Shown: positions 55,886-64,000 of the stretch, in pieces | How positions within the stretch are numbered: the stretch's first letter is position 1 | How the letters are laid out: every line of letters starts with the position of its first letter | DNA from: Candidatus Hydrogenedentota bacterium | GTDB taxonomy: Bacteria; Hydrogenedentota; Hydrogenedentia; Hydrogenedentales; SLHB01 | NCBI GenBank assembly: GCA_963668025.2 | Contig: CAXXTH010000010.1 | Location: 928,001 to 992,000 of the forward strand | Length of the DNA stretch: 64,000 nt | Direction: 5' to 3' | Made by a program: the position numbers and the translations under genes | The notes under the pieces: model-generated | The model's input: the letters and a program-made list of their open reading frames with translations, nothing else | What the model was told of the DNA's origin: nothing | Database searches by the model: none

Positions 55886-56191
55886 TTATACTTCCGCAAT
55901 GACTCCGTCGTCTGATACCTCGAACAACGCCATACCCTGCCGTCCGGCTTTATCCGCCCCGTGCAGATACACCCGCAGCCCTTTTTCCGTGGGCCTCGTG
56001 CATATGGCGAAGACTCGAGTCCAGTTGTATCGACACTGAGCCACGGTGGACGCGGCATAAGCGCACTCAGGTATGTTGGATGAGGATGGCATTGTGAAGA
56101 GGCAGGACTGCGTTCGATGCGAGAATCGTGCAGGTGCGGACTTACCGGTAGGACAGCCACGTAGGACCGTAGAAACGAGCCATGTCCCCAT
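55886..56191 (-). CDS. Hypothetical protein or gene remnant
   Basis: 101-aa ORF whose ATG overlaps the hsdR stop (TGATG); no recognised motif. Confidence 0.3.
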   Translation of the reverse strand: MGTWLVSTVLRGCPTGKSAPARFSHRTQSCLFTMPSSSNIPECAYAASTVAQCRYNWTRVFAICTRPTEKGLRVYLHGADKAGRQGMALFEVSDDGVIAEV

Positions 56192-59100
56192 CAGTCATTA
56201 ACGGCTTTGGCGTCCTCTCTAATCTTTTCATAGACTTCTTTGAGGAGATGCTGGCTAACGACCTCTCGGAACCGATCCTCGTTCATGAATTTGGCGGTGA
56301 TATCCTCGTTCTGGTCCATCCGGTCGATGAAGAGACCTTCCAGCGCTTTGCGGAAGACGTAACCGAAGTTCTCCATCGTGTTGGCGATCGCTGCCTGGCG
56401 AAGGGTGTGGTCCGCGATAGCGTCTTCGCGGATCGACTCGAAGAACAACTGGTCACCCGGGCGAAAGTCCGTGCCCAAGCGCTCGTTTAAAATGTCGATA
56501 AGCCTGGAGAGCTCGATGTCATCGCCGCGCGCTACACCCGTGCCAACGGATGTGGGACCGGAGACCGGTTCTTGTTCGCCGGGTTGAAGCTGAATCGAGC
56601 CCTCGCCGATTTTCTGGAGGCGATAGTATTTCAGAGCCACATCGTCATCGAAATTGTAGATCGGCCCCCGGTCGCCTCTTGGCAGCTTGTTCAGGAGGAA
56701 CCGGATATAAGAGTAGTGTTTCTCCAGGTCCGTATCTTGGAACGGGATTACCTGCGACATGAATGAATACAGGTTCCGGTACGCAACGAGCGTTTTGCGG
56801 AACTCTTCCCGGACATCCTCGTCCAGCGCGTTGAATCGTCCCACGGCGGGGTCGATGCAGGCGTTCATCCGGGCATGGTCCGCAGGCGTCTGTGTGCGCT
56901 TCGGTTTATAGAAGACCTTGCAGAACTCTTCGACTTCCGCCTTGAAGTAGACCTGATGGCCGTCGAGCTTGGCCTGCAGTTCATAGAGTTGCTGGGCCTC
57001 GGCACGCTCGCCGATTGTGGTCTGCTCGTAGAACGGCTGGAACGCCTTGAGTATCTCCTCCGGCTCGTTCACGAAGTCCAGCACGAAGGTGTCCTCCTTG
57101 CCGGGATGGGTCCGGTTGAGGCGCGAGAGCGTTTGCACCGCTTGGATGTCAGCCAGCCGCTTGTCAACATACATCGTATGCAGCAAAGGTTGATCGAAAC
57201 CGGTTTGATACTTCTCGGCCACGAGCAGCACCTGGTACTCGTCTGACCCGAACCGTTCGGGCAGTTCCTTCTCCCGAATGCCGCCGTTCATCCCGACTTC
57301 CGTGTATTCGACGTTCGTCGCGTCCGGGTCGGTAACCGTTCCCGAGAAAGCCACGAGCGTCTTGATGCCTGTATATCCCTTTTCGGCGATATACTTGTCG
57401 AACGCCTGTTTGTACCTGACCGCATGCAGGCGGCTTGAGGTCACCACCATGGCCTTGGCCTTCCCGCCGATCTTGTGCATGGTGAAGTGGCGGAAATGCT
57501 CGACCATGACCTCGGTCTTTTGCGCGATATTGTGCGGGTGCAGGCTCATGAACCGCGCCAAGGCCCGCGCCGCCTTGCGTTTGTCCACCTTCGGATCGTC
57601 TTCGATAGACTTGATGAGCCGGTAGTAGGTTTTGTACGTCGTGTAGTTCCGAAGGACATCGAGGATGAACCCCTCCTCAATGGCCTGCCGCATACTGTAG
57701 AGATGGAAGGGAGCGGGCTTCCCGACCGGGCCAGGCTGGCCAAACACTTCCAGCGTCTTGTACTTGGGCGTGGCCGTAAAGGCGAAAAACGAGATGTTGG
57801 GCTGGCGGCCGCGCTTCAGCATGGTTTTGAGGATCTCTTCCTCGTAGTCGGTCAACCCCTGCTCGGCGGCATATTTCGCGGCTTCTTCCTTGACGATCGG
57901 CGAACCCAACACCCCCTTGAGTTCGGTGGCGGTCTCGCCGCCCTGGGAACTGTGGGCCTCGTCCACGATGACCGCATACTTGTGTTTGGGCAGGTCGCCG
58001 ATCTTCTCGGTCACGAAGGGGAACTTCTGCAAGGTGGTGATGACGATGGGAACACCCGTGGCGAGGGACTCCGCTAGTTGCGCCGAGTCGATATCGATCT
58101 TCTGCACCACGCCTTGTTTGTGCTCGAATTGGTAGATGGTGTTCTGAAGCTGCTGGTCGAGGACCACCCGGTCGGTCACCACAATGACCGAGTCGAAGAC
58201 CTTCTCATCGTTGTCGTCGTATAGGGTGGCCAGCCGGTGCGCCAGCCACGCGATGGAGTTGGATTTCCCGCTTCCCGCCGAGTGTTGGACGAGGTAGTTG
58301 GTCCCCGTGCCCTGGCTGTGCGCATCCGCCACCAACTGGCGCACGCAATCCAATTGGTGGTAGCGGGGGAAGATCATCGTCGCCTTCTTGACTTTCTTGC
58401 CGCCCAGCGTCTTGTCTTCAACCTGCAGGTGGACAAAACGCGCCAGGATGTCCAGAAGACTATGCCGCTTCAACACCTCTTCCCACAGATAGGCTGTCTT
58501 GTATCCGTCCCTATTATCAAGATTCCCGCCGCCGCCATTGCAGCCCTTGTTGAAAGGCAGGAAATAGGTCTTGCCCCCCGACAGGCGCGTGGTCATATAG
58601 ACCTCGTCCGTGTCCACGGCGAAATGCACCAGTGTTCGCCGCTTGAATTCGAAGATCAGTTCCGATGGATCCCGGTCGTTCTTGTACTGCGCCACCGCGT
58701 GCCGCCAGGTCTGGGCGGTCATGGGGTTCTTCAGTTCCGCCGTCGCCACCGGTATGCCGTTGAGCGCCAGCGTCACGTCGAGCGTGTTGCCATTCTTGGC
58801 CGAGTAGCGGAGCTGGCGCGTGATGGTGAGCCGGTTCGACTCATATCGCATGTTCGTTTCGGGATTCATCCCGCTCGCCGGGGCGAAGTACGCCACACGA
58901 AACAGCTTGCCGAAGCACTTGAACCCGTGCCGCAACACCGACAGGCAGCCCTCGTGTTCCGAGTTGAGCGCGCGGCACAAGTCGTCGAGCAACGTCTCCT
59001 CAGTCTTATTCTTCTGGATATTCGCCAGGTACTCCCACTCGTTGGGCTGGGTTTTCTGGATAAACGCGAGCACGCCGGCAGGGAACAGGCCCCGTTCCAG

Positions 59101-59196
59101 ATCGAACGCCTCCCGGTCGCCCTTCTCGTAGCCGCCCACCGTCGTCAGATGGTGTTCAATAGCGGTTTCAAAGGCGTATTCGGAATGATTTTTCAT
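56191..59196 (-). CDS. hsdR: Type I restriction enzyme, restriction subunit
   Basis: LD...ALNGIPVATAELKN nuclease motif, PRYHQ, QHSAGSGKS, VDEAHSSQ, FTATP, KYQTGFDQP, QTLSRLNR; start MKNHSE. Confidence 0.96.
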   Translation of the reverse strand: MKNHSEYAFETAIEHHLTTVGGYEKGDREAFDLERGLFPAGVLAFIQKTQPNEWEYLANIQKNKTEETLLDDLCRALNSEHEGCLSVLRHGFKCFGKLFRVAYFAPASGMNPETNMRYESNRLTITRQLRYSAKNGNTLDVTLALNGIPVATAELKNPMTAQTWRHAVAQYKNDRDPSELIFEFKRRTLVHFAVDTDEVYMTTRLSGGKTYFLPFNKGCNGGGGNLDNRDGYKTAYLWEEVLKRHSLLDILARFVHLQVEDKTLGGKKVKKATMIFPRYHQLDCVRQLVADAHSQGTGTNYLVQHSAGSGKSNSIAWLAHRLATLYDDNDEKVFDSVIVVTDRVVLDQQLQNTIYQFEHKQGVVQKIDIDSAQLAESLATGVPIVITTLQKFPFVTEKIGDLPKHKYAVIVDEAHSSQGGETATELKGVLGSPIVKEEAAKYAAEQGLTDYEEEILKTMLKRGRQPNISFFAFTATPKYKTLEVFGQPGPVGKPAPFHLYSMRQAIEEGFILDVLRNYTTYKTYYRLIKSIEDDPKVDKRKAARALARFMSLHPHNIAQKTEVMVEHFRHFTMHKIGGKAKAMVVTSSRLHAVRYKQAFDKYIAEKGYTGIKTLVAFSGTVTDPDATNVEYTEVGMNGGIREKELPERFGSDEYQVLLVAEKYQTGFDQPLLHTMYVDKRLADIQAVQTLSRLNRTHPGKEDTFVLDFVNEPEEILKAFQPFYEQTTIGERAEAQQLYELQAKLDGHQVYFKAEVEEFCKVFYKPKRTQTPADHARMNACIDPAVGRFNALDEDVREEFRKTLVAYRNLYSFMSQVIPFQDTDLEKHYSYIRFLLNKLPRGDRGPIYNFDDDVALKYYRLQKIGEGSIQLQPGEQEPVSGPTSVGTGVARGDDIELSRLIDILNERLGTDFRPGDQLFFESIREDAIADHTLRQAAIANTMENFGYVFRKALEGLFIDRMDQNEDITAKFMNEDRFREVVSQHLLKEVYEKIREDAKAVND

Positions 59197-59819
59197 GATG
59201 CGTCCATTCCCGTAGGGGCAACCCCCCGTGGTTGCCCATTTTCCCGTGGTTGCCCATTTCCCTTTTCCCGGTCCATTTCCCATTGCGCCGGGTTATTCGC
59301 GATGTATTCCCGGATACGGTTCATTTCATTGTCGTCGCGGATGATATGTTCGTAATAATTGCGCTGCCACAATTTGCCCGGGAACGGACGCCATCCGTTC
59401 TGTTTGACCCCATCGACGTACCGTTTTGTAGACATGGTTTTGAAACGGTGGATGACATCCGGCAACGACAATGCCGCATTCCGCCGATCCCCCGTCGGGG
59501 CGGCCCCCCGTGGCCGCCCATCGCCAGGGCAGGCACAGGGGCCTGCCCCGACGATAACGATAATTCCGTGAATGTGGTTTGGCATGATTACGAATTCATC
59601 GGTTTCGATCCCGGAATAATTCGTAGGAATTTCATCCCACACCTGTTGAACCATCCGTCCTGCATCGTTCAACGCCATTTGGGGGCGGCCACAGGGGGCC
59701 GCCCCTACGATATGACCGAACATACATTCCCGGTTCTGGGTGCAAACCGTCACGAAATACGCCCCGGCCTGCGCATAATCGTAACACTGCAAACGGATGG
59801 AACGGCGGTGTTTCGTCAT
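59193..59819 (-). mobile_element. REP-associated tyrosine transposase (RAYT / TnpA-REP, HUH Y1)
   Basis: RRSIRL..YDY...GAYFVTVCT, IMPNHIHGI (HUH), WQRNYYEHIIR, YIANNP; 208 aa. Confidence 0.92.
59212..59708. repeat. Four GT(A/C)GGGGC-type REP palindromes inside the RAYT coding sequence
   Basis: 59212-59237 (+), 59494-59519 (+), 59527-59552 (-), 59683-59708 (-); consensus GT(A/C)GGGGC-RR-CCCCYGTG-NY-YGCCC. Confidence 0.85.
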
Positions 59820-59917
59820 GCCGGAACCTCCTTGCGCACGTCGATCTTGCCGGTGACCGTCGTGAGGTGGTGTTCGATGGCGGTTTTTAAGGCGTATTCC
59901 GTGTGCTGGGCTGGCAT
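59816..59917 (-). other. Chimeric mini-ORF (HsdR N-terminus fused to HsdS C-terminus); recombination scar
   Basis: MPAQHTEYALKTAIEHHLTT-VTGKIDVRKEVPA*; first part matches HsdR (HSEYAFETAIEHHLTTV), second matches the HsdS end (AVTGKIDVR). Confidence 0.88.
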
Positions 59918-59947
59918 CTCCATCCTTTCTGCAAGACCTAGAGGGCT

Positions 59948-61858
59948 TCAAACACCATACTCTACATAGGGCGTATCAGTTTCACGGACACTCGATTCGG
60001 AGGTATCGGCGTGGATCGTCTCCTTCAGAATCCTCAGAAAAGTCTCATTTCTGCTTTCCGCGTCATTGATCAATGTCTCATATGTCAGAACATAGAGATC
60101 GACAAGGAAAGGTTCGCCGCCTTCTTCCAGATATATTGGCTGAGGTTTGTAGAACATTGTCCCAAGGCTGAACAGCTCCTTGAATCCGTCTTCTTTTAGA
60201 GAGAGTCGGAACTCAGCGTCAATATCCGTGATCCCATAAAACCATATCCTATTGATCTTGTTCGGGTAGTAGGCCAAGAGCCGCCTTGCCCTCTGGCGAA
60301 GCTGGCTGATAACTTCCTCTTTCCTGGCTAGCGCCACACCGTGCCTTTTGAGTTCAACAACAACGATATCCACCTTTGGAGAGTCCGACGGATTCCCCGA
60401 AAAGACAAGCGTCAGGTCTGGGCGACCATCATCATCCTCGTCGCCGACTACTGCAATCTCTGCAATAACCTTTGTCATTTCTTCGTCACTCAAGATTGTC
60501 GTGTAGCTCATGTACTTGTCATCAAGCATCCATACATTGTTGTTGTAGACATCGCTAGGGAGTGTTGTGGTTCGGAACGTCCGCCGACGCGGCACGATCA
60601 AGTCATGTAGTTCGCCTTCGGTGTTTGTGTCATCCGTTGCTTTGAGCTTGCGTATGATATGGGTCCTATACAGGATGTACTCCATAAGGACACGGGCTGA
60701 CACTTCAAGCGCTTTGTCATACTGCTCTTCATCAAGCTGACTACATTCGAGAATCTCCCTCTGATCCTTGAAGAAGCCTCTCTGCGCCATCTCAATTACC
60801 TCATTGCGGATTAGAAGTCCAACGCTTTCAGGCGGGAAGTATCCCTCAAGGTGTGGGTACTTCGTAGCAAGCTCGTCACGTATACGATTGTTGTGTTCCG
60901 GGATCCTCGGTATCTTATCTCGAAGAATGCGTCCTACTTCGCGCCGAAGGACTATCTTCAGTTCCTTTTCTCTAGTTGCATCAAGCATGACAACCTGTTG
61001 CCTGGCAGGGTCAGTTGCCCCCTGAAACAAGCCGGAAGTGAACAGGAATATGCCTTGATATCCATCAGGAACCTGGTCAGAACTGACAAGATTGTATCGT
61101 TGCGTCCTTCCGTCGATGCAGAGAGCAGTGAGGAGTGACTTCGGCTTCGCCAGGTCATTCTCGACGGCATAGTGGATCTCTATGTGTTCCGCAAGATCTA
61201 CTCCGGGGGCCTCGATTCTGGTTGTATGAAGCTCGGGTATATCGGCTGGCTTGAGGCTAAGAGCTATAGAGCAGAAATCGTGATCAGGATTTGGCGTTGC
61301 GGTATCCAGGGAAATGTTTATCACAAGTTCGCTGCCGCTAGACTTCTTCTGAAACAGAATAGGGAAAAAGTTTCCAATCAGGGACTCCCGGATCTTCGCG
61401 GGGACTAAGCAGTCATAGCTGTTGAGGCGTTCGCCAGCGAAATCTCCGAATGTCAGGGTTGTTCCGAAGTCTGTACAAGACGTTTGCTTAATATCTGAAT
61501 CACCGGAGAAGTCTCTTGTGAAACAGAAGAAACGCTTTTCGTTGCCTGCATATATGCTTTCAACTTCAACTTTGCGGAAATATACCAGGAAGACTAAGCG
61601 GCCGAGTCCTTTGTGATCTTCGTTAGCAGTTTCCAGGAGATAGGAGAACCTCCGAAAGTTGTCCTCAGTGAACCCCTCTCCATTGTCCGATATCTTCACG
61701 CGAAGGGTATCAGGGTGGTTGAAAGCTTTTATGGATATCTCGATGTTGATCTTCGTTGCGCCAGCGTCGAACGCGTTGGCCACCGCCTCGAGATAAACTT
61801 GCTCATAGGAAGGGTTAGGATAGAAATGGGATATCGCGTTTGACAGATTGACGTTCAT
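59948..61858 (-). CDS. GHKL (MORC/HSP90-like) ATPase fused to a C-terminal PD-(D/E)XK-like nuclease
   Basis: EAVANAFDA, DNGEGF, KGLGR, GT Bergerat motifs; E..LH...RPDL...VVVELKR nuclease-like motif. Confidence 0.75.
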   Translation of the reverse strand: MNVNLSNAISHFYPNPSYEQVYLEAVANAFDAGATKINIEISIKAFNHPDTLRVKISDNGEGFTEDNFRRFSYLLETANEDHKGLGRLVFLVYFRKVEVESIYAGNEKRFFCFTRDFSGDSDIKQTSCTDFGTTLTFGDFAGERLNSYDCLVPAKIRESLIGNFFPILFQKKSSGSELVINISLDTATPNPDHDFCSIALSLKPADIPELHTTRIEAPGVDLAEHIEIHYAVENDLAKPKSLLTALCIDGRTQRYNLVSSDQVPDGYQGIFLFTSGLFQGATDPARQQVVMLDATREKELKIVLRREVGRILRDKIPRIPEHNNRIRDELATKYPHLEGYFPPESVGLLIRNEVIEMAQRGFFKDQREILECSQLDEEQYDKALEVSARVLMEYILYRTHIIRKLKATDDTNTEGELHDLIVPRRRTFRTTTLPSDVYNNNVWMLDDKYMSYTTILSDEEMTKVIAEIAVVGDEDDDGRPDLTLVFSGNPSDSPKVDIVVVELKRHGVALARKEEVISQLRQRARRLLAYYPNKINRIWFYGITDIDAEFRLSLKEDGFKELFSLGTMFYKPQPIYLEEGGEPFLVDLYVLTYETLINDAESRNETFLRILKETIHADTSESSVRETDTPYVEYGV

Positions 61859-63207
61859 GCTTCCCTCCTTAGAACTGACTCGTGAGGATCTCTTGAGTTC
61901 CGCACGTCGATCTTGCCCGTTACCGCTGCCGAGATAAGAGCTGTGCGGTATTCGCGGAGCGCCTCAATGCCCTTCGAAATCCTCTCAGATGTACAGTCCG
62001 TATGTTCTGTGCCGGACGAAATCACATCCGCAATTGCTCTTTGCTCCTGGATGGGCGGCACTGCTAGCCAGAAGTTCCGAATGGTCTCAACATTCACGTG
62101 TGGCGAAGTGGCCCCGATCACATCCTGTTCAGCCTGCCGGTAGACTATCGAAGCATTCAGTTGCCACATCAGGAAATCGGACTTCACTATTCCGGATAAT
62201 GCGCGAAACAGCATCATTCGTTGGGAAATGCACACCTCACAGCCGATAGGAACAAGTGCCGCCATTCCAAAGCGCTCGCCTTCACGGCTGTAAACGATGT
62301 CCATCGGCTTTGGTTTCAATCTGGATATTTGCCTACGGAAACTCTCCTCATCAACGCGACGGGCATCTTTCAGGTCGAGTCTTCCTGGACTCACGTCCGC
62401 TGTACGAATCGCTGGATAGGCGCCATCTTCAATGTAATCTGGCGTTGCATGGATGCAGTCAACTATATGTGAAGTGACATGCTTCAGGCGTTTTCGCTCC
62501 CAATGCGCCGGAATCTGGCCGAGCCATTCGATGCCGGAGTCTTTCATGGGGGCGTTGGGGTTGAGGCCTTTGGTGACGGCGTGGGAGATGAGGGCGGCGC
62601 GCTTTTCCTGGAGTAATTCGATCTGCCGCCGTTTCTTCTCGATCAACGCATCGATCCGCGCCGTCTCGCGGTCCAGAAACGCTGCGATGGCGCGTTGCTC
62701 GTCAAGCGGGGGTATGAGCGCGGGCAGATTACCGATGAAGTCCCAGTTCGCACGGGGCATCTTCGCCCCGTAGGTGGATGAATCTACAACTGAGACGAAG
62801 TCCGTATTAAGCATATAGCCCAGGAGGAACCTCTGGATGACATACTGCGGACGCAGGACGAGAAGCTCACCTGTACAGACACCATCCGAATCGGCAGCAT
62901 ACGCCTTGGCCAGATAAGGACGGAGCTTACCGAAGAGCACATCGCCGCGCCGGTACAGGTTTGCCTCTCCCTCACTTGTTGACTCTCCATTGGGGGTGAA
63001 CCGTTTGCCGGTCCATGACTCGATGTGCTCGAGCCCAGTGTAAGGTAGGTCGTTGTCTGCACCATCAACCTTCACGTTTACAAGATCAGCGGTGTACTTG
63101 AGACGCCGGACCTCCCAATGTTCCGGTACGTCGCCAAGCCAGGCCACGCCAGACGGCTTATACGTCGGGTAGGTTGCGCGTTTGTGTTTTCTTGCCCTTG
63201 CGGTCAT
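61855..63207 (-). CDS. hsdS: Type I restriction enzyme, specificity subunit
   Basis: Two TRDs with conserved KPSGVAWLGDVPEHW / KDSGIEWLGQIPAHW, PPL.EQRAIA and ALIS.AVT repeats. Confidence 0.96.
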   Translation of the reverse strand: MTARARKHKRATYPTYKPSGVAWLGDVPEHWEVRRLKYTADLVNVKVDGADNDLPYTGLEHIESWTGKRFTPNGESTSEGEANLYRRGDVLFGKLRPYLAKAYAADSDGVCTGELLVLRPQYVIQRFLLGYMLNTDFVSVVDSSTYGAKMPRANWDFIGNLPALIPPLDEQRAIAAFLDRETARIDALIEKKRRQIELLQEKRAALISHAVTKGLNPNAPMKDSGIEWLGQIPAHWERKRLKHVTSHIVDCIHATPDYIEDGAYPAIRTADVSPGRLDLKDARRVDEESFRRQISRLKPKPMDIVYSREGERFGMAALVPIGCEVCISQRMMLFRALSGIVKSDFLMWQLNASIVYRQAEQDVIGATSPHVNVETIRNFWLAVPPIQEQRAIADVISSGTEHTDCTSERISKGIEALREYRTALISAAVTGKIDVRNSRDPHESVLRREA

Positions 63208-64000
63208 CACGGCTTGCCCCCCTTGCGCCGATCTGGTTTCAGGTCTTTGGCCTGACCTTTACTCTTGGCCGGTTGTTTTCTCCGCTTGTTCTCCAGCGTT
63301 TTAGCGGAGTTCCGCAAGTCGTCCACATACCGCGTCTCGGCCTCTTCCTCCGCCTCGAGCCGCCGCCGCTCGGCGAAGGCATCGTACTGTCCCTCTGCCC
63401 ATTCGATGGCCGCTTCGCGGCTGACTTTGCCTGGCCCCGCGAGCACAGGAAGTTCCGTATCATTCAAAAACTTGTCGAGGAACGCTTCCCAGTCGCGCAT
63501 GCGGATATCCTGTCGCCGCTGGGCGCGGAATTCGGCCTGGTCGAGGAACATGACCGTGATGCGGTTTAGCGTGTCGATTTCTTTCGCGTCAAGGTAGTTC
63601 TTCGCGGTGGCGGCATCCCGCTTGAGCACCCGACCGCCTTTCCACGAGGCCAGGCCCATGTTGGCCTTTTCGGCGTCGGCGCGCCTGCGGATGATCTCTG
63701 CCGCCGTCAAGCCTGTCGCCGCGTAGTGGACCTTATTCTGCATGGTGGCGAAGAAGACTTGCGTTTCCTGTTCGCCTTCGCGGTAATCGCAAGCCAGTGC
63801 GAAGATCTCCCGAATGCGCTGGTATACCCGCGCCTCGCTGGCGCGAATCTCGCGGATACGGGCCAGCAACTCGTCAAAGTAGTCCGCCAGCCCTTTGCCA
63901 CCCTTAAGCCGTTCATCGTCGAGCGCAAACCCTTTGACCAGATACTCGCTCAACCGCGCCGTGGCCCACTGGCGGAACTGAATGCCGCGCGGGCTTTGAA
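63207..64000 (-). CDS. Virulence RhuM-family protein (5' truncated by window)
   Basis: SPRGIQFRQWATARLSEYLVKGFALDDERLK, DYFDELLARIREIRASE, QNKVHYA.TG.TAAE, AKNYL. Confidence 0.92.
   Translation of the reverse strand, partial: QSPRGIQFRQWATARLSEYLVKGFALDDERLKGGKGLADYFDELLARIREIRASEARVYQRIREIFALACDYREGEQETQVFFATMQNKVHYAATGLTAAEIIRRRADAEKANMGLASWKGGRVLKRDAATAKNYLDAKEIDTLNRITVMFLDQAEFRAQRRQDIRMRDWEAFLDKFLNDTELPVLAGPGKVSREAAIEWAEGQYDAFAERRRLEAEEEAETRYVDDLRNSAKTLENKRRKQPAKSKGQAKDLKPDRRKGGKP

Follow-up and report, generated by a model that had tools for sequence, protein, structure and literature searches.

Background

Cargo genes embedded in type I restriction-modification (R-M) operons are known from PrrC (EcoprrI), DarTG2 between hsdS and hsdR (EPEC), TgvAB (V. 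cholerae VPI-2) and the 'guilt-by-embedding' work, as described in portions of three reports (PMC12255303, PMC11411939, bioRxiv 10.1101/2024.01.29.577857), and one of these portions terms the hsdS-hsdR site 'a potential recombination hotspot' (PMC12255303). Nested defence genes in R-M, BREX and similar operons now guide the discovery of immune systems, and their route of entry has not been worked out. The relevant portions of the embedded-defence papers cover which genes are embedded, unlike the relic boundaries described here. Recombination, remnants, truncated genes and hotspots go unmentioned in the searched portions of the main text of bioRxiv 10.1101/2024.01.29.577857, and the literature searched contained no description of hsdR'::'hsdS relics between modules. 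For the orphan arrays of T6SS, Rhs and CDI loci, homology-facilitated illegitimate recombination with C-terminal displacement has been proposed in part of another report (PMC5361080).

Like the described type I R-M systems with embedded defence genes, the operon in the window (the whole stretch of 64,000 nt that was analysed) carries co-directional cargo between hsdS and hsdR, here a GHKL ATPase gene and a RAYT gene, and also between hsdM and hsdS, here rhuM. A relic made of both flanking R-M genes lies between the two cargo genes (Table 1).

Results

Organisation of the operon and its cargo

The embedded genes were all on the minus strand, co-directional with the R-M genes, with overlapping stops and starts. 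The GHKL gene start overlaps the hsdS stop (ATGA), and the RAYT gene has ATGA overlaps at both ends, with the relic stop at its start and with the hsdR start at its stop. No minus-strand terminator-like site was found, and the promoter/terminator scan yielded fewer sites than shuffles and was hence uninformative.

Table 1. Features of the operon, the relic and the contigs that span it (window positions)
Feature	Position	Strand	Basis
hsdR, 1001 aa, non-standard start MKNHSEY	56191..59196	(-)	Pfam, PADLOC, relatives
hsdR 5' stretch matching relic head	59138..59181	(-)	38/44 nt identical to 59856-59899
Cargo 2, RAYT-like Y1 (HUH) transposase homologue, 208 aa	59193..59819	(-)	Pfam Y1_Tnp 2.9e-7
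Relic ORF, 33 codons, hsdR' head fused to 'hsdS tail	59816..59917	(-)	ATG 59917, TGA 59816-59818
'hsdS tail of relic, 13 codons + stop, standard KEV class	59816..59859	(-)	nhmmer E 3.8e-7
CGGT microhomology at relic join	59856..59859	(-)	sequence comparison
hsdR' head of relic, 20 codons, standard MPGQHTEY class	59856..59917	(-)	nhmmer E 6.2e-8
Cargo 1, GHKL ATPase protein, 636 aa	59948..61858	(-)	Pfam HATPase_c_3 at residues 18-108 only
hsdS, 451 aa	61855..63210	(-)	Pfam Methylase_S; PADLOC Specificity_I 1.2e-131
hsdS 3' 17-mer	61901..61917	(-)	equals 59835-59851 at 17/17 nt; 24/28 with flanks
rhuM, 367 aa in all, runs off window	63207..64000	(-)	Pfam Virulence_RhuM 1.8e-104
Bridging contigs	X1 record 1 (whole stretch, possibly source); X2 record 13 (59547-60944); X3 record 20 (59471-59997)

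Pfam analysis of HsdR showed the N-terminal nuclease region and SF2 motor of a type I R-M enzyme, with HSDR_N, SWI2_SNF2 and T1R_D3-like domains (PF04313, PF18766, PF22679). PADLOC gave REase_I at 5.4e-40, the TIGR00348 score was 200.8 bits, under its cut-off of 284.55, and relatives at 56-87% identity were present in many phyla. HsdS contained two target recognition domains (PF01420, 2 stretches), and its tail beyond GKIDVR is replaced by NSRDPHESVLRREA and the stop. The third embedded gene, rhuM, is the ORF just upstream of hsdS (locus L098), and hsdM lies beyond the window, past rhuM, in an ORF with N6_Mtase and HsdM_N domains.

The RAYT protein matched PF01797 at 31 bits over its C-terminal half and the NCBIfam REP_Tyr_transpos model at 57.4 bits, below the 80-bit cut-off, and HIH and YYEH motifs were spotted by eye. 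No dispersed REP hairpins were found, the four GC-rich palindromes of the RAYT gene occurring only within the gene in a search of the whole genome at up to 3 mismatches. The preliminary description had called the 636-aa GHKL protein a nuclease, a label that was dropped, as Pfam supports the GHKL ATPase domain only. PADLOC gave no match for GHKL or RAYT. One weak DDE_Tnp_1_assoc match, below its cut-off, was seen near the array.

The operon family and its cargo slot

At least 586 stretches matched HsdR, from which 80 hsdR-anchored loci (L numbers) were kept, 62 of them with both gene ends. The R-M family of the window is spread over many phyla. The hsdS-hsdR gap held more than 250 nt of cargo in 49/62 related loci, mostly defence or toxin-antitoxin modules, and the cargo families included DarTG, Fic, GmrSD, AbiE, M78-DUF4411, Schlafen/AlbA_2 and AAA + S8 peptidase. 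Two same-family relatives, G013 and G018, carried the same R-M family (HsdR 83% and 81%, respectively) with different cargo, and in G018 the modules are separated by a tail relic. The hsdS and hsdR genes abut (TGATG) in 11/62 loci, with hsdS tails like KEVA plus stop and hsdR starts like MPGQHTE.

Anatomy of the relic ORF

The relic ORF encodes MPAQHTEYALKTAIEHHLTTVTGKIDVRKEVPA followed by the stop, and an alternative in-frame ATG at 59923 would add ME. The motif AAGGAGG lies inside the 'hsdS tail, 7 nt ahead of the RAYT ATG. The two halves are joined in frame at CGGT, which is also found at the matching place in both present-day genes of the window; in the parental alleles the shared run may have had another length. 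Relic head and window hsdR differed at six positions, 4 synonymous and 2 nonsynonymous (F to L, E to K). A degenerate pattern of the junction peptide had 1 match in the window and matched 0/100 shuffles. The fusion ORF, the repeat matches, the in-frame CGGT join and the ATGA overlap had all been reported in the preliminary description, and all of these sequence statements hold.

Foreign-allele origin of the relic

Both halves of the relic derive from a second allele, since they are nearer to the standard ends of related operons than to the window's own genes. The relic head matched the hsdR head of L029 at 55/62 nt and that of the window at 44/62, while the relic tail matched the hsdS tails of L034, L027, L008 and L005 at 36/44 nt and that of the window at 26/44. 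The differences between relic and window hsdR fell at third codon positions in 5/6 cases (P = 0.018). An origin from a second allele rather than from local duplication, as first proposed from the synonymous differences, was thus borne out. Where the relic has L and K, F stands in 67/70 and E in 70/70 family sequences, which fits decay after the join. The tail and start types of the abutting loci are exactly both classes seen in the relic and were counted for the joining of foreign alleles. The hsdS ends of L018, L020 and L069 contain the 17-mer as well, which indicates ordinary family conservation.

Candidate parental layouts were present among the relatives. L009 and L021 carry RAYT (homologues 47-50% identical) and no other cargo; the genes there have ATGA overlaps, and their hsdR starts are of the MK type. 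In L081 a 54% GHKL homologue lies directly upstream of hsdR. GHKL homologues numbered 0 among the 80 hsdR-anchored loci, and a separate scan for them found 4, only one in an R-M operon. No second hsdR, hsdS or GHKL copy that could serve as donor was found in the same genome.

Relics in related loci

Thirteen relatives were classed as multi-module by our own reading of the Pfam table, and an hsdS-tail relic was present at a module boundary in 8/13, some of which also keep an hsdR head. The L050 relic has a head at nhmmer E 3.3e-8 and a tail at E 0.003, the L055 relic a head at 22/24 nt and a tail at 61/63 nt, and the L072 relic a head at 18/21 nt and a tail at E 3.5e-8. The layout hsdS-cargo-hsdR'::'hsdS-cargo-hsdR of the preliminary description therefore recurs in other lineages, firmly in L050 and L055, probably in L072 and weakly in L028; arrays of more than two modules, which it had also envisaged, exist with three modules (e.g. 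L057). Tail-only hsdS relics stand at module boundaries in L004, L005, L025 and L059, and no relic was found in 5/13 multi-module loci (L015, L022, L057, L060, L074). Weak profile matches in L039 (E 0.07), L067 (E 0.11), L029 (E 0.8) and L081 (E 0.04) were not counted as relics.

An M78-DUF4411 module in first place has a start that overlaps the real hsdS stop in 6/7 loci, and one in second place has an hsdS-tail relic ahead of it in 6/8 loci. In all 15 of these loci it is the module adjacent to hsdR. A decayed-tail variant, AGEIGV, is common to L005 and L028 and lies beside this module. Relic lengths vary from about 90 to 300 nt. The four direct fusions are in frame only in the window and L072, which is no more than chance.

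Assembly support

The relic is spanned, with 0 differences, by contigs of three runs, which come from two samples of one study. A k-mer assembler should not be able to create the join of hsdR head and hsdS tail across only 4 common bases. Run X3 contained a depth-67.5 contig that is common with the window only over 59471-59997 and another over 59001-59500; the GHKL and hsdR pieces had a depth of 13-17, and the sequence continues unlike the window at both ends. These depths hint that the block of relic, RAYT and hsdR head also exists in a second context of higher abundance.

Among the contig joints of the three runs, where rare variants are dropped, no skip of 718 nt or 2066 nt (single-cargo or excised form) was found. 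Joints from 59238/59243 to 59683/59684 (sides of 26-27 nt) and from 59857 to 62570 (a 23-nt side at depth 2) had short sides, fell in GC-rich palindromes or conserved hsdS motifs and were treated as cross-matches.

Junction positions and search for a recombinase

The junctions differ among the fusions of the window, L050, L055 and L072, lying at hsdR codons 20, 29, 8 and 7 and at 13, about 17, about 21 and about 60 codons from the hsdS end, respectively. The window junction pattern AIExxLxxVTGKIDV had 0 matches in genome_contigs and 0 in metagenome_contigs, with the window recovered as positive control, so that the junction is not a recurrent site; an exact 40-mer across it also had 0 matches in metagenome_contigs. 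Neither the 9 ORFs of 100 aa or more in the 14 kb upstream nor 3 ORFs downstream matched a recombinase family in Pfam. The longest perfect runs of the two repeat pairs are only 11 nt and 17 nt, and runs of this size are short for a RecA crossover. The suggestion of integron-like, site-specific recombination thus found no support, and the same CGGT junction, whose recurrence had been named as a test, was absent from both collections. RAYT was rejected as the agent of the join, as the relics of L050, L055 and L072 occur without RAYT and the genome has no dispersed REP copies.

Discussion

Origin of the relic

The relics in this operon family appear to be a recurrent footprint of cargo-stacking illegitimate recombination and not of an integron-like site-specific system. 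For the window, the reading we prefer, with a probability of about 0.5, is that the relic is a scar of illegitimate recombination between two versions of the same horizontally mobile type I R-M operon. Version 1 would have been hsdS-GHKL-hsdR with a standard hsdR start, and version 2 hsdS-RAYT-hsdR with a standard hsdS tail. Incoming DNA most likely recombined homologously on one side, within a conserved R-M gene, while the other side would have been joined through the 4-nt CGGT, codon 20 of one hsdR to the 13th-from-end codon of the other hsdS, in a homology-facilitated illegitimate recombination of the 'displacement' type. Both cargo genes would be kept and the surplus R-M sequence cut down to 102 nt. 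Retention of the hsdS tail is probably due to its supplying AAGGAGG and the overlapping stop/start for the next gene; against such translational coupling stands the in-frame state of only two of the four direct fusions. No dedicated recombinase or site would be needed, and repeated events could enlarge the cargo slot into arrays. In every relic both breakpoints fall near the cargo, leaving 7-40 codons of hsdR head and 13 to about 60 codons of hsdS tail. Chance would not place them all there, which counts against this reading unless trimming or selection came later.

From structure alone, one-step anchored joining, deletion between tandem operons, and duplication plus replacement cannot be told apart. 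Two complete operons may have stood in tandem (hsdM-hsdS-GHKL-hsdR and hsdM-hsdS-RAYT-hsdR), possibly after single-crossover integration of a circular element, and a microhomology deletion may then have removed most of the first hsdR and of the second hsdM-hsdS. The final arrangement and the foreign-allele signature would be the same under this history, two operons of this R-M family occur in one MAG, on separate contigs (L033, L034), and the range of relic lengths fits random deletions followed by trimming. We regard it as possible but clearly less probable than a single anchored joining, as it requires two rare steps, no tandem intermediate was present among the 62 loci with both gene ends, and both ends of the deletion would have had to lie close to the cargo, no more than 60 nt away in a gene of 3 kb and no more than 40 nt away in one of 1.4 kb. 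A local tandem duplication from hsdS tail to hsdR head, bare or with cargo, could also have arisen by unequal exchange, the second slot being filled or replaced homologously later. L055 speaks for such a course: its relic resembles the gene ends of the same locus (88% over 33 nt in the head and 97% over 63 nt in the tail), and its two antitoxin genes are 98% identical across their first 129 nt. In the window, however, each half of the relic is more similar to foreign alleles than to the operon's own genes, the excess of third-position differences points to an hsdR that diverged while functional and under selection, and a profile search of the relatives found no locus with an empty duplicated hsdS-hsdR junction, so that duplication is unlikely here.

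According to the preliminary description, 'hsdS end-cargo-hsdR start' units might form circles or be captured, with the conserved gene ends as recombination arms; this was weighed here as a recombinase-free cassette system with portable arms. The relics at module boundaries in 8/13 loci, the decayed tails that accompany the M78-DUF4411 module and the second context suggested by the X3 contigs are all in line with this, but every junction is different, that of the window has 0 recurrences, no integrase was found among the ORFs scanned around the array, the arms are very short and no contig shows the 718-nt or 2066-nt skip, although contigs cannot show rare forms; such units are improbable as the source of the relic. 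An assembly chimera of two strains, named beforehand as a possible refutation, was not upheld and is hardly credible. The genome is in 24 contigs and, going by run X3, the habitat may harbour more than one related strain, but the identical bridging contigs come from two samples, 4 shared nucleotides are far too few for a k-mer mis-join, and analogous relics occur in unrelated assemblies.

Implications

Under the preferred reading of two operon versions joined by illegitimate recombination, the relics would be physical footprints of cargo-joining events. Modules would arrive carrying the specificity-gene end of their former operon, arrays would grow by addition and not only by replacement, and cargo stacking would need no dedicated recombinase. 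As judged from the relic's motifs, the specificity-gene tail may also serve to start translation of the gene that follows, and the slot may tolerate cargo for this reason. The hsdS-tail and hsdR-head stubs could also mark the limits of independent cargo modules in embedded arrays.

A more speculative and rather doubtful extension is that the last ~15 hsdS codons and the first ~20-30 hsdR codons act as portable arms that move 'hsdS tail-cargo-hsdR head' units across phyla. If so, each unit would bring its own translation start, each stacking would make a further docking slot, and the type I R-M operon would be a recombinase-free, self-extending platform for defence genes; the block of relic, RAYT and hsdR head in run X3, identical in a second context, would then be a unit in transit.

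Comparison with known systems

Integrons resemble the window in their tandem, promoterless, co-directional cargo read from one operon, whereas in the window no IntI was found around the array, an attC-like conserved site is lacking, and the junctions are variable. The closest analogues appear to be the displaced orphan arrays of Rhs, CDI and T6SS loci. In the part of PMC5361080 that concerns these arrays, as in the window, a conserved anchor gene stands beside a variable module and older modules are kept as new ones are added; displaced modules keep a stub of the conserved gene and one end is joined by microhomology (PMC5361080). In the present family, hsdS-tail stubs mark the multi-module boundaries counted above and that of the window, where the joint shows the CGGT. 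The window differs from these arrays in that its cargo consists of unrelated defence or toxin-antitoxin genes, not toxin tips with immunity genes, and in that conserved genes stand on both sides (hsdS and hsdR), so that one scar can hold both stubs.

Organisation of the operon

A single operon on the minus strand of the window carried rhuM, hsdS, a GHKL ATPase gene, the relic, a RAYT-like gene and hsdR, with ATGA stop/start overlaps at hsdS/GHKL, relic/RAYT and RAYT/hsdR. In locus L098, which is this operon extended past the window end, hsdM was the next gene past rhuM and outside the window. The operon therefore held three embedded genes (rhuM, GHKL, RAYT-like) and not only the two cargo genes of the preliminary description, with rhuM occupying a further cargo slot, between hsdM and hsdS. 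The C-terminal part of RhuM also had homologues immediately upstream of hsdS in L081 (49%) and L096 (76%). A tRNA-Arg gene lay downstream of hsdR and the housekeeping genes yicC, gmk and coaBC upstream of hsdM, and no recombinase families were detected among the ORFs scanned around the operon.

Coordinates of the features in the window operon
Feature	Position	Strand	Description
rhuM	63207-64000, extending beyond the window to the equivalent of 64310 (L098:208-1311)	-	Pfam RhuM family, 1.8e-104
hsdS	63210-61855	-	operon gene
GHKL ATPase gene	61858-59948	-	operon gene, 636 aa
Spacer			30 nt, between GHKL ATPase gene and relic ORF
Relic ORF	59917-59816	-	33 codons
RAYT-like gene	59819-59193	-	Y1 transposase homologue, 208 aa
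Palindromes in RAYT-like gene	59216-59240, 59498-59522, 59527-59552, 59683-59708		four, in frame, GC-rich
hsdR	59196-56191	-	

The palindromes in the RAYT-like gene code for G(R/Q)P(R/Q)GAAPT-like stretches. None was found elsewhere in the genome at up to 3 mismatches, and pieces (26-60 nt, 96-100% identity) were spread over several contigs of four relatives (G049, G003, G050, G031).

Verification of the relic

The relic head matched the hsdR 5' end at 38 of 44 nt, with four of the six differences synonymous and two non-synonymous, while the tail matched the hsdS 3' end at 17 of 17 nt (24/28 with flanks) and the halves joined in frame at CGGT. Every sequence statement of the preliminary description holds. 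A degenerate junction-peptide pattern gave one match in the window and none in 100 shuffles. With DNA profiles derived from 60-odd relatives of the operon, both the head (E = 6.2e-8) and the tail (E = 3.8e-7) were detected. Contigs of three public runs (two samples, one study), one of which may be the source of the assembly, spanned the junction with 0 differences, contrary to a chimera of two strains. A k-mer assembly mis-join was not credible because the parental sequences share just four bases.

In run X3, from the second sample, contigs over 59471-59997 and 59001-59500 had depths of 67.5 and 41.6, and the GHKL and hsdR pieces had depths of 13-17, so that the relic-RAYT contigs stood at three to five times the flanking-gene depth, a hint resting on single contigs. 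Beyond 59997 and below 59001, the sequence of the two high-depth contigs no longer resembled the window. Only part of the locus may be shared by a second and more abundant strain, with the relic-RAYT block in another context; the shared block may comprise the last 50 nt of GHKL, the relic, RAYT and the first 195 nt of hsdR.

The hsdS-hsdR slot in related operons

The HsdR search matched at least 586 stretches (566 confirmed), of which the best 80 were kept; among these, the hsdR start was placed in 70 loci and both the hsdS end and hsdR start in 62. The relatives were 56-87% identical and came from MAGs and isolates whose labels span many phyla. The two genes abutted in 11 of the 62 loci (by TGATG, except in L038, where they overlap by 10 nt), with the hsdS tail reading ...AAVTGKIDVR(K/E)EVA before the stop and hsdR starting MPGQHTE(Y/H)AFETAIEHHL. 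Gaps of 117 and 171 nt were present in 2 loci, and more than 250 nt of inserted DNA in 49.

Pfam annotation of 116 gap ORFs of at least 70 aa assigned the cargo to M78 peptidase + DUF4411 (15 loci), Fic/DOC (8), AAA + S8 peptidase (5), Schlafen/AlbA_2 + HATPase_c_4 (5) and DarT + Macro (2), alongside AbiEi/AbiEii, GmrSD, HEPN, VapBC-like PIN pairs, CAP12-type TIR, KwaB-like and other families. Two genomes of the window's taxonomic family carried the same R-M family with different cargo: Abi_C + AAA + S8 in G013 (HsdR 83% identical), and an unknown 395-aa gene, an hsdS-tail relic and M78 + DUF4411, in that order, in G018 (81%). M78-DUF4411 was always the module nearest to hsdR in its 15 loci, with extra modules always on the hsdS side, which suggests polarity in array growth.

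RAYT-like genes also occurred in operons of this R-M family from distant lineages (L009:9465-10004, L021:2361-3011, L075:7947-8513, L095:3416-4141), either in the hsdS-hsdR gap or immediately before hsdS, an association unexplained for a supposed housekeeping transposase. At L065:5469-6209 and L073:7755-8432, hsdS continued past GKIDVR for about 200 codons, similar in both (...FGRVK(F/L)(E/Q)K...); these specificity subunits are predicted to be fused to a cargo-like domain.

Relics at module boundaries

Our reading of the Pfam cargo table gave 13 multi-module loci (L004, L005, L015, L022, L025, L028, L050, L055, L057, L059, L060, L072, L074), and in 8 of them a remnant of the hsdS tail stood precisely where one internal module meets the next. 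Between GmrSD + HEPN and M78 + DUF4411, L050 had a 29-codon hsdR head (profile E 3.3e-8), then out of frame ...LLICAVITAKIDVRKDV and a stop, then the M78 start. In L072 an in-frame ORF of 93 aa opened with MQGQHTG, matching the hsdR head of the same locus at 18/21 nt, and went on into the hsdS C-terminus for about 60 codons (profile E 3.5e-8). In L055 the relic separated two VapBC-like pairs, 98% identical over their first 129 nt, and consisted of 8 codons of hsdR head (22/24 nt against the hsdR of that locus) fused to 63 nt of hsdS tail (97% against the hsdS of that locus). In L028 the hsdR head was weak (E 0.095; 26/60 nt) and was followed by a spacer and then a decayed hsdS tail, and L004, L005, L025 and L059 had hsdS tails only. 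No relic was found at the module boundaries of the other five loci (L015, L022, L057, L060, L074).

The VapBC-like pairs of L055 (L055:8582-9992) were unrelated after the first 129 nt (the best local alignment of the PIN proteins had 6/22 identities), giving mosaic antitoxin genes on both flanks of the relic.

On the hsdR side the junction lay at codon 20 (window), 29 (L050), 8 (L055) and 7 (L072); counted back from the hsdS end, the respective distances were 13, about 17, about 21 and about 60 codons. The junction of the window itself was not matched anywhere among 185,579 species genomes or 241 million metagenome records. Relics in other loci, with differing junctions and no match to that of the window, show that the stacking scar is recurrent but not site-specific.

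Origin and joining of the two halves

The relic head reads MPAQHTEY... and the tail ...KEVPA before the stop, both standard classes of abutting operons; the window's own hsdR starts MKNHSEY and its hsdS ends NSRDPHESVLRREA before the stop. The head matched the hsdR head of L029 at 55/62 nt versus 44/62 for the window's hsdR, and the tail matched several standard tails at 36/44 nt versus 26/44 for the window's own hsdS. Five of six head differences from the window's hsdR were at third codon positions (P = 0.018), a bias that points to divergence under selection in a working gene. Standard-class halves, nearer to foreign alleles, and this bias together support the second-allele origin proposed earlier. 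The relic has L and K where the HsdR family has F (67/70) and E (70/70), changes probably acquired since the join. L018, L020 and L069 have the same 17-mer at their hsdS ends; its identity between relic and hsdS is ordinary family conservation.

No second hsdR, hsdS or GHKL copy was found in the genome. RAYT homologues (47-50% identical) were the sole hsdS-hsdR cargo in L009 and L021, with MK-type hsdR starts and overlapping stops and starts. In the type I operon L081, a GHKL homologue (54%) lay directly upstream of hsdR, preceded by an AAA_21/AAA_15 ATPase, an HNH protein and a 64-aa ORF. Both parental types, RAYT-cargo and GHKL-cargo operons, thus exist.

The layout cargo 1-hsdR head::hsdS tail-cargo 2 needs one illegitimate joint, from the start of one hsdR to the end of another hsdS. 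The simplest route would be acquisition of a second allele, paired homologously at one end within a conserved R-M gene and joined at the other by microhomology, that is, homology-facilitated illegitimate recombination, a route already put forward for the orphan arrays of T6SS effector-immunity, Rhs and CDI loci (PMC5361080, in excerpt). The same product would arise if a deletion occurred between tandem operons, and a local duplication is consistent with L055 but not with the window; judged from structure alone, acquisition, tandem deletion and duplication cannot be separated. Breakpoints hugged the cargo in all cases, probably through later trimming and selection against longer HsdS or HsdR fragments.

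Crossover at the present repeat pairs would delete one cargo gene, as suggested, but the perfect runs are just 11 and 17 nt, short for RecA-dependent exchange. No single-cargo products were seen among the contigs of the runs, which could not show rare forms.

Retention of the hsdS tail

In the standard class, the hsdS tail contains AAGGAGG 7-8 nt upstream of the ATG that follows, and the hsdS stop overlaps this ATG. Where M78-DUF4411 was the first module, its start overlapped the stop of the real hsdS in 6 of 7 cases; where it was the second, an hsdS-tail relic lay just upstream in 6 of 8. We infer that the tail serves as a translation-initiation region for whichever gene follows, and it would therefore be shielded from deletion. 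Direct fusions were in frame in 2 of 4 cases (chance expectation about 1/3), and reading frame seems not to matter.

Relation to known systems

Cargo embedding in type I R-M operons is already known: defence genes embedded at this slot have been described (PMC11411939, PMC12255303 and bioRxiv 10.1101/2024.01.29.577857, all in excerpt), and the hsdS-hsdR site has been called a potential recombination hotspot (PMC12255303). The words recombination, remnant, truncated and hotspot are absent from the main text of the Payne preprint (bioRxiv 10.1101/2024.01.29.577857), and an hsdR'::'hsdS or hsdS-tail relic as a regular module-boundary marker in embedded arrays was not found in the literature searched. 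The preliminary analogy between hsdS-hsdR arrays and an integron is not supported. Rhs, CDI and T6SS loci are known to carry stacked arrays in which stubs of a conserved neighbouring gene persist.
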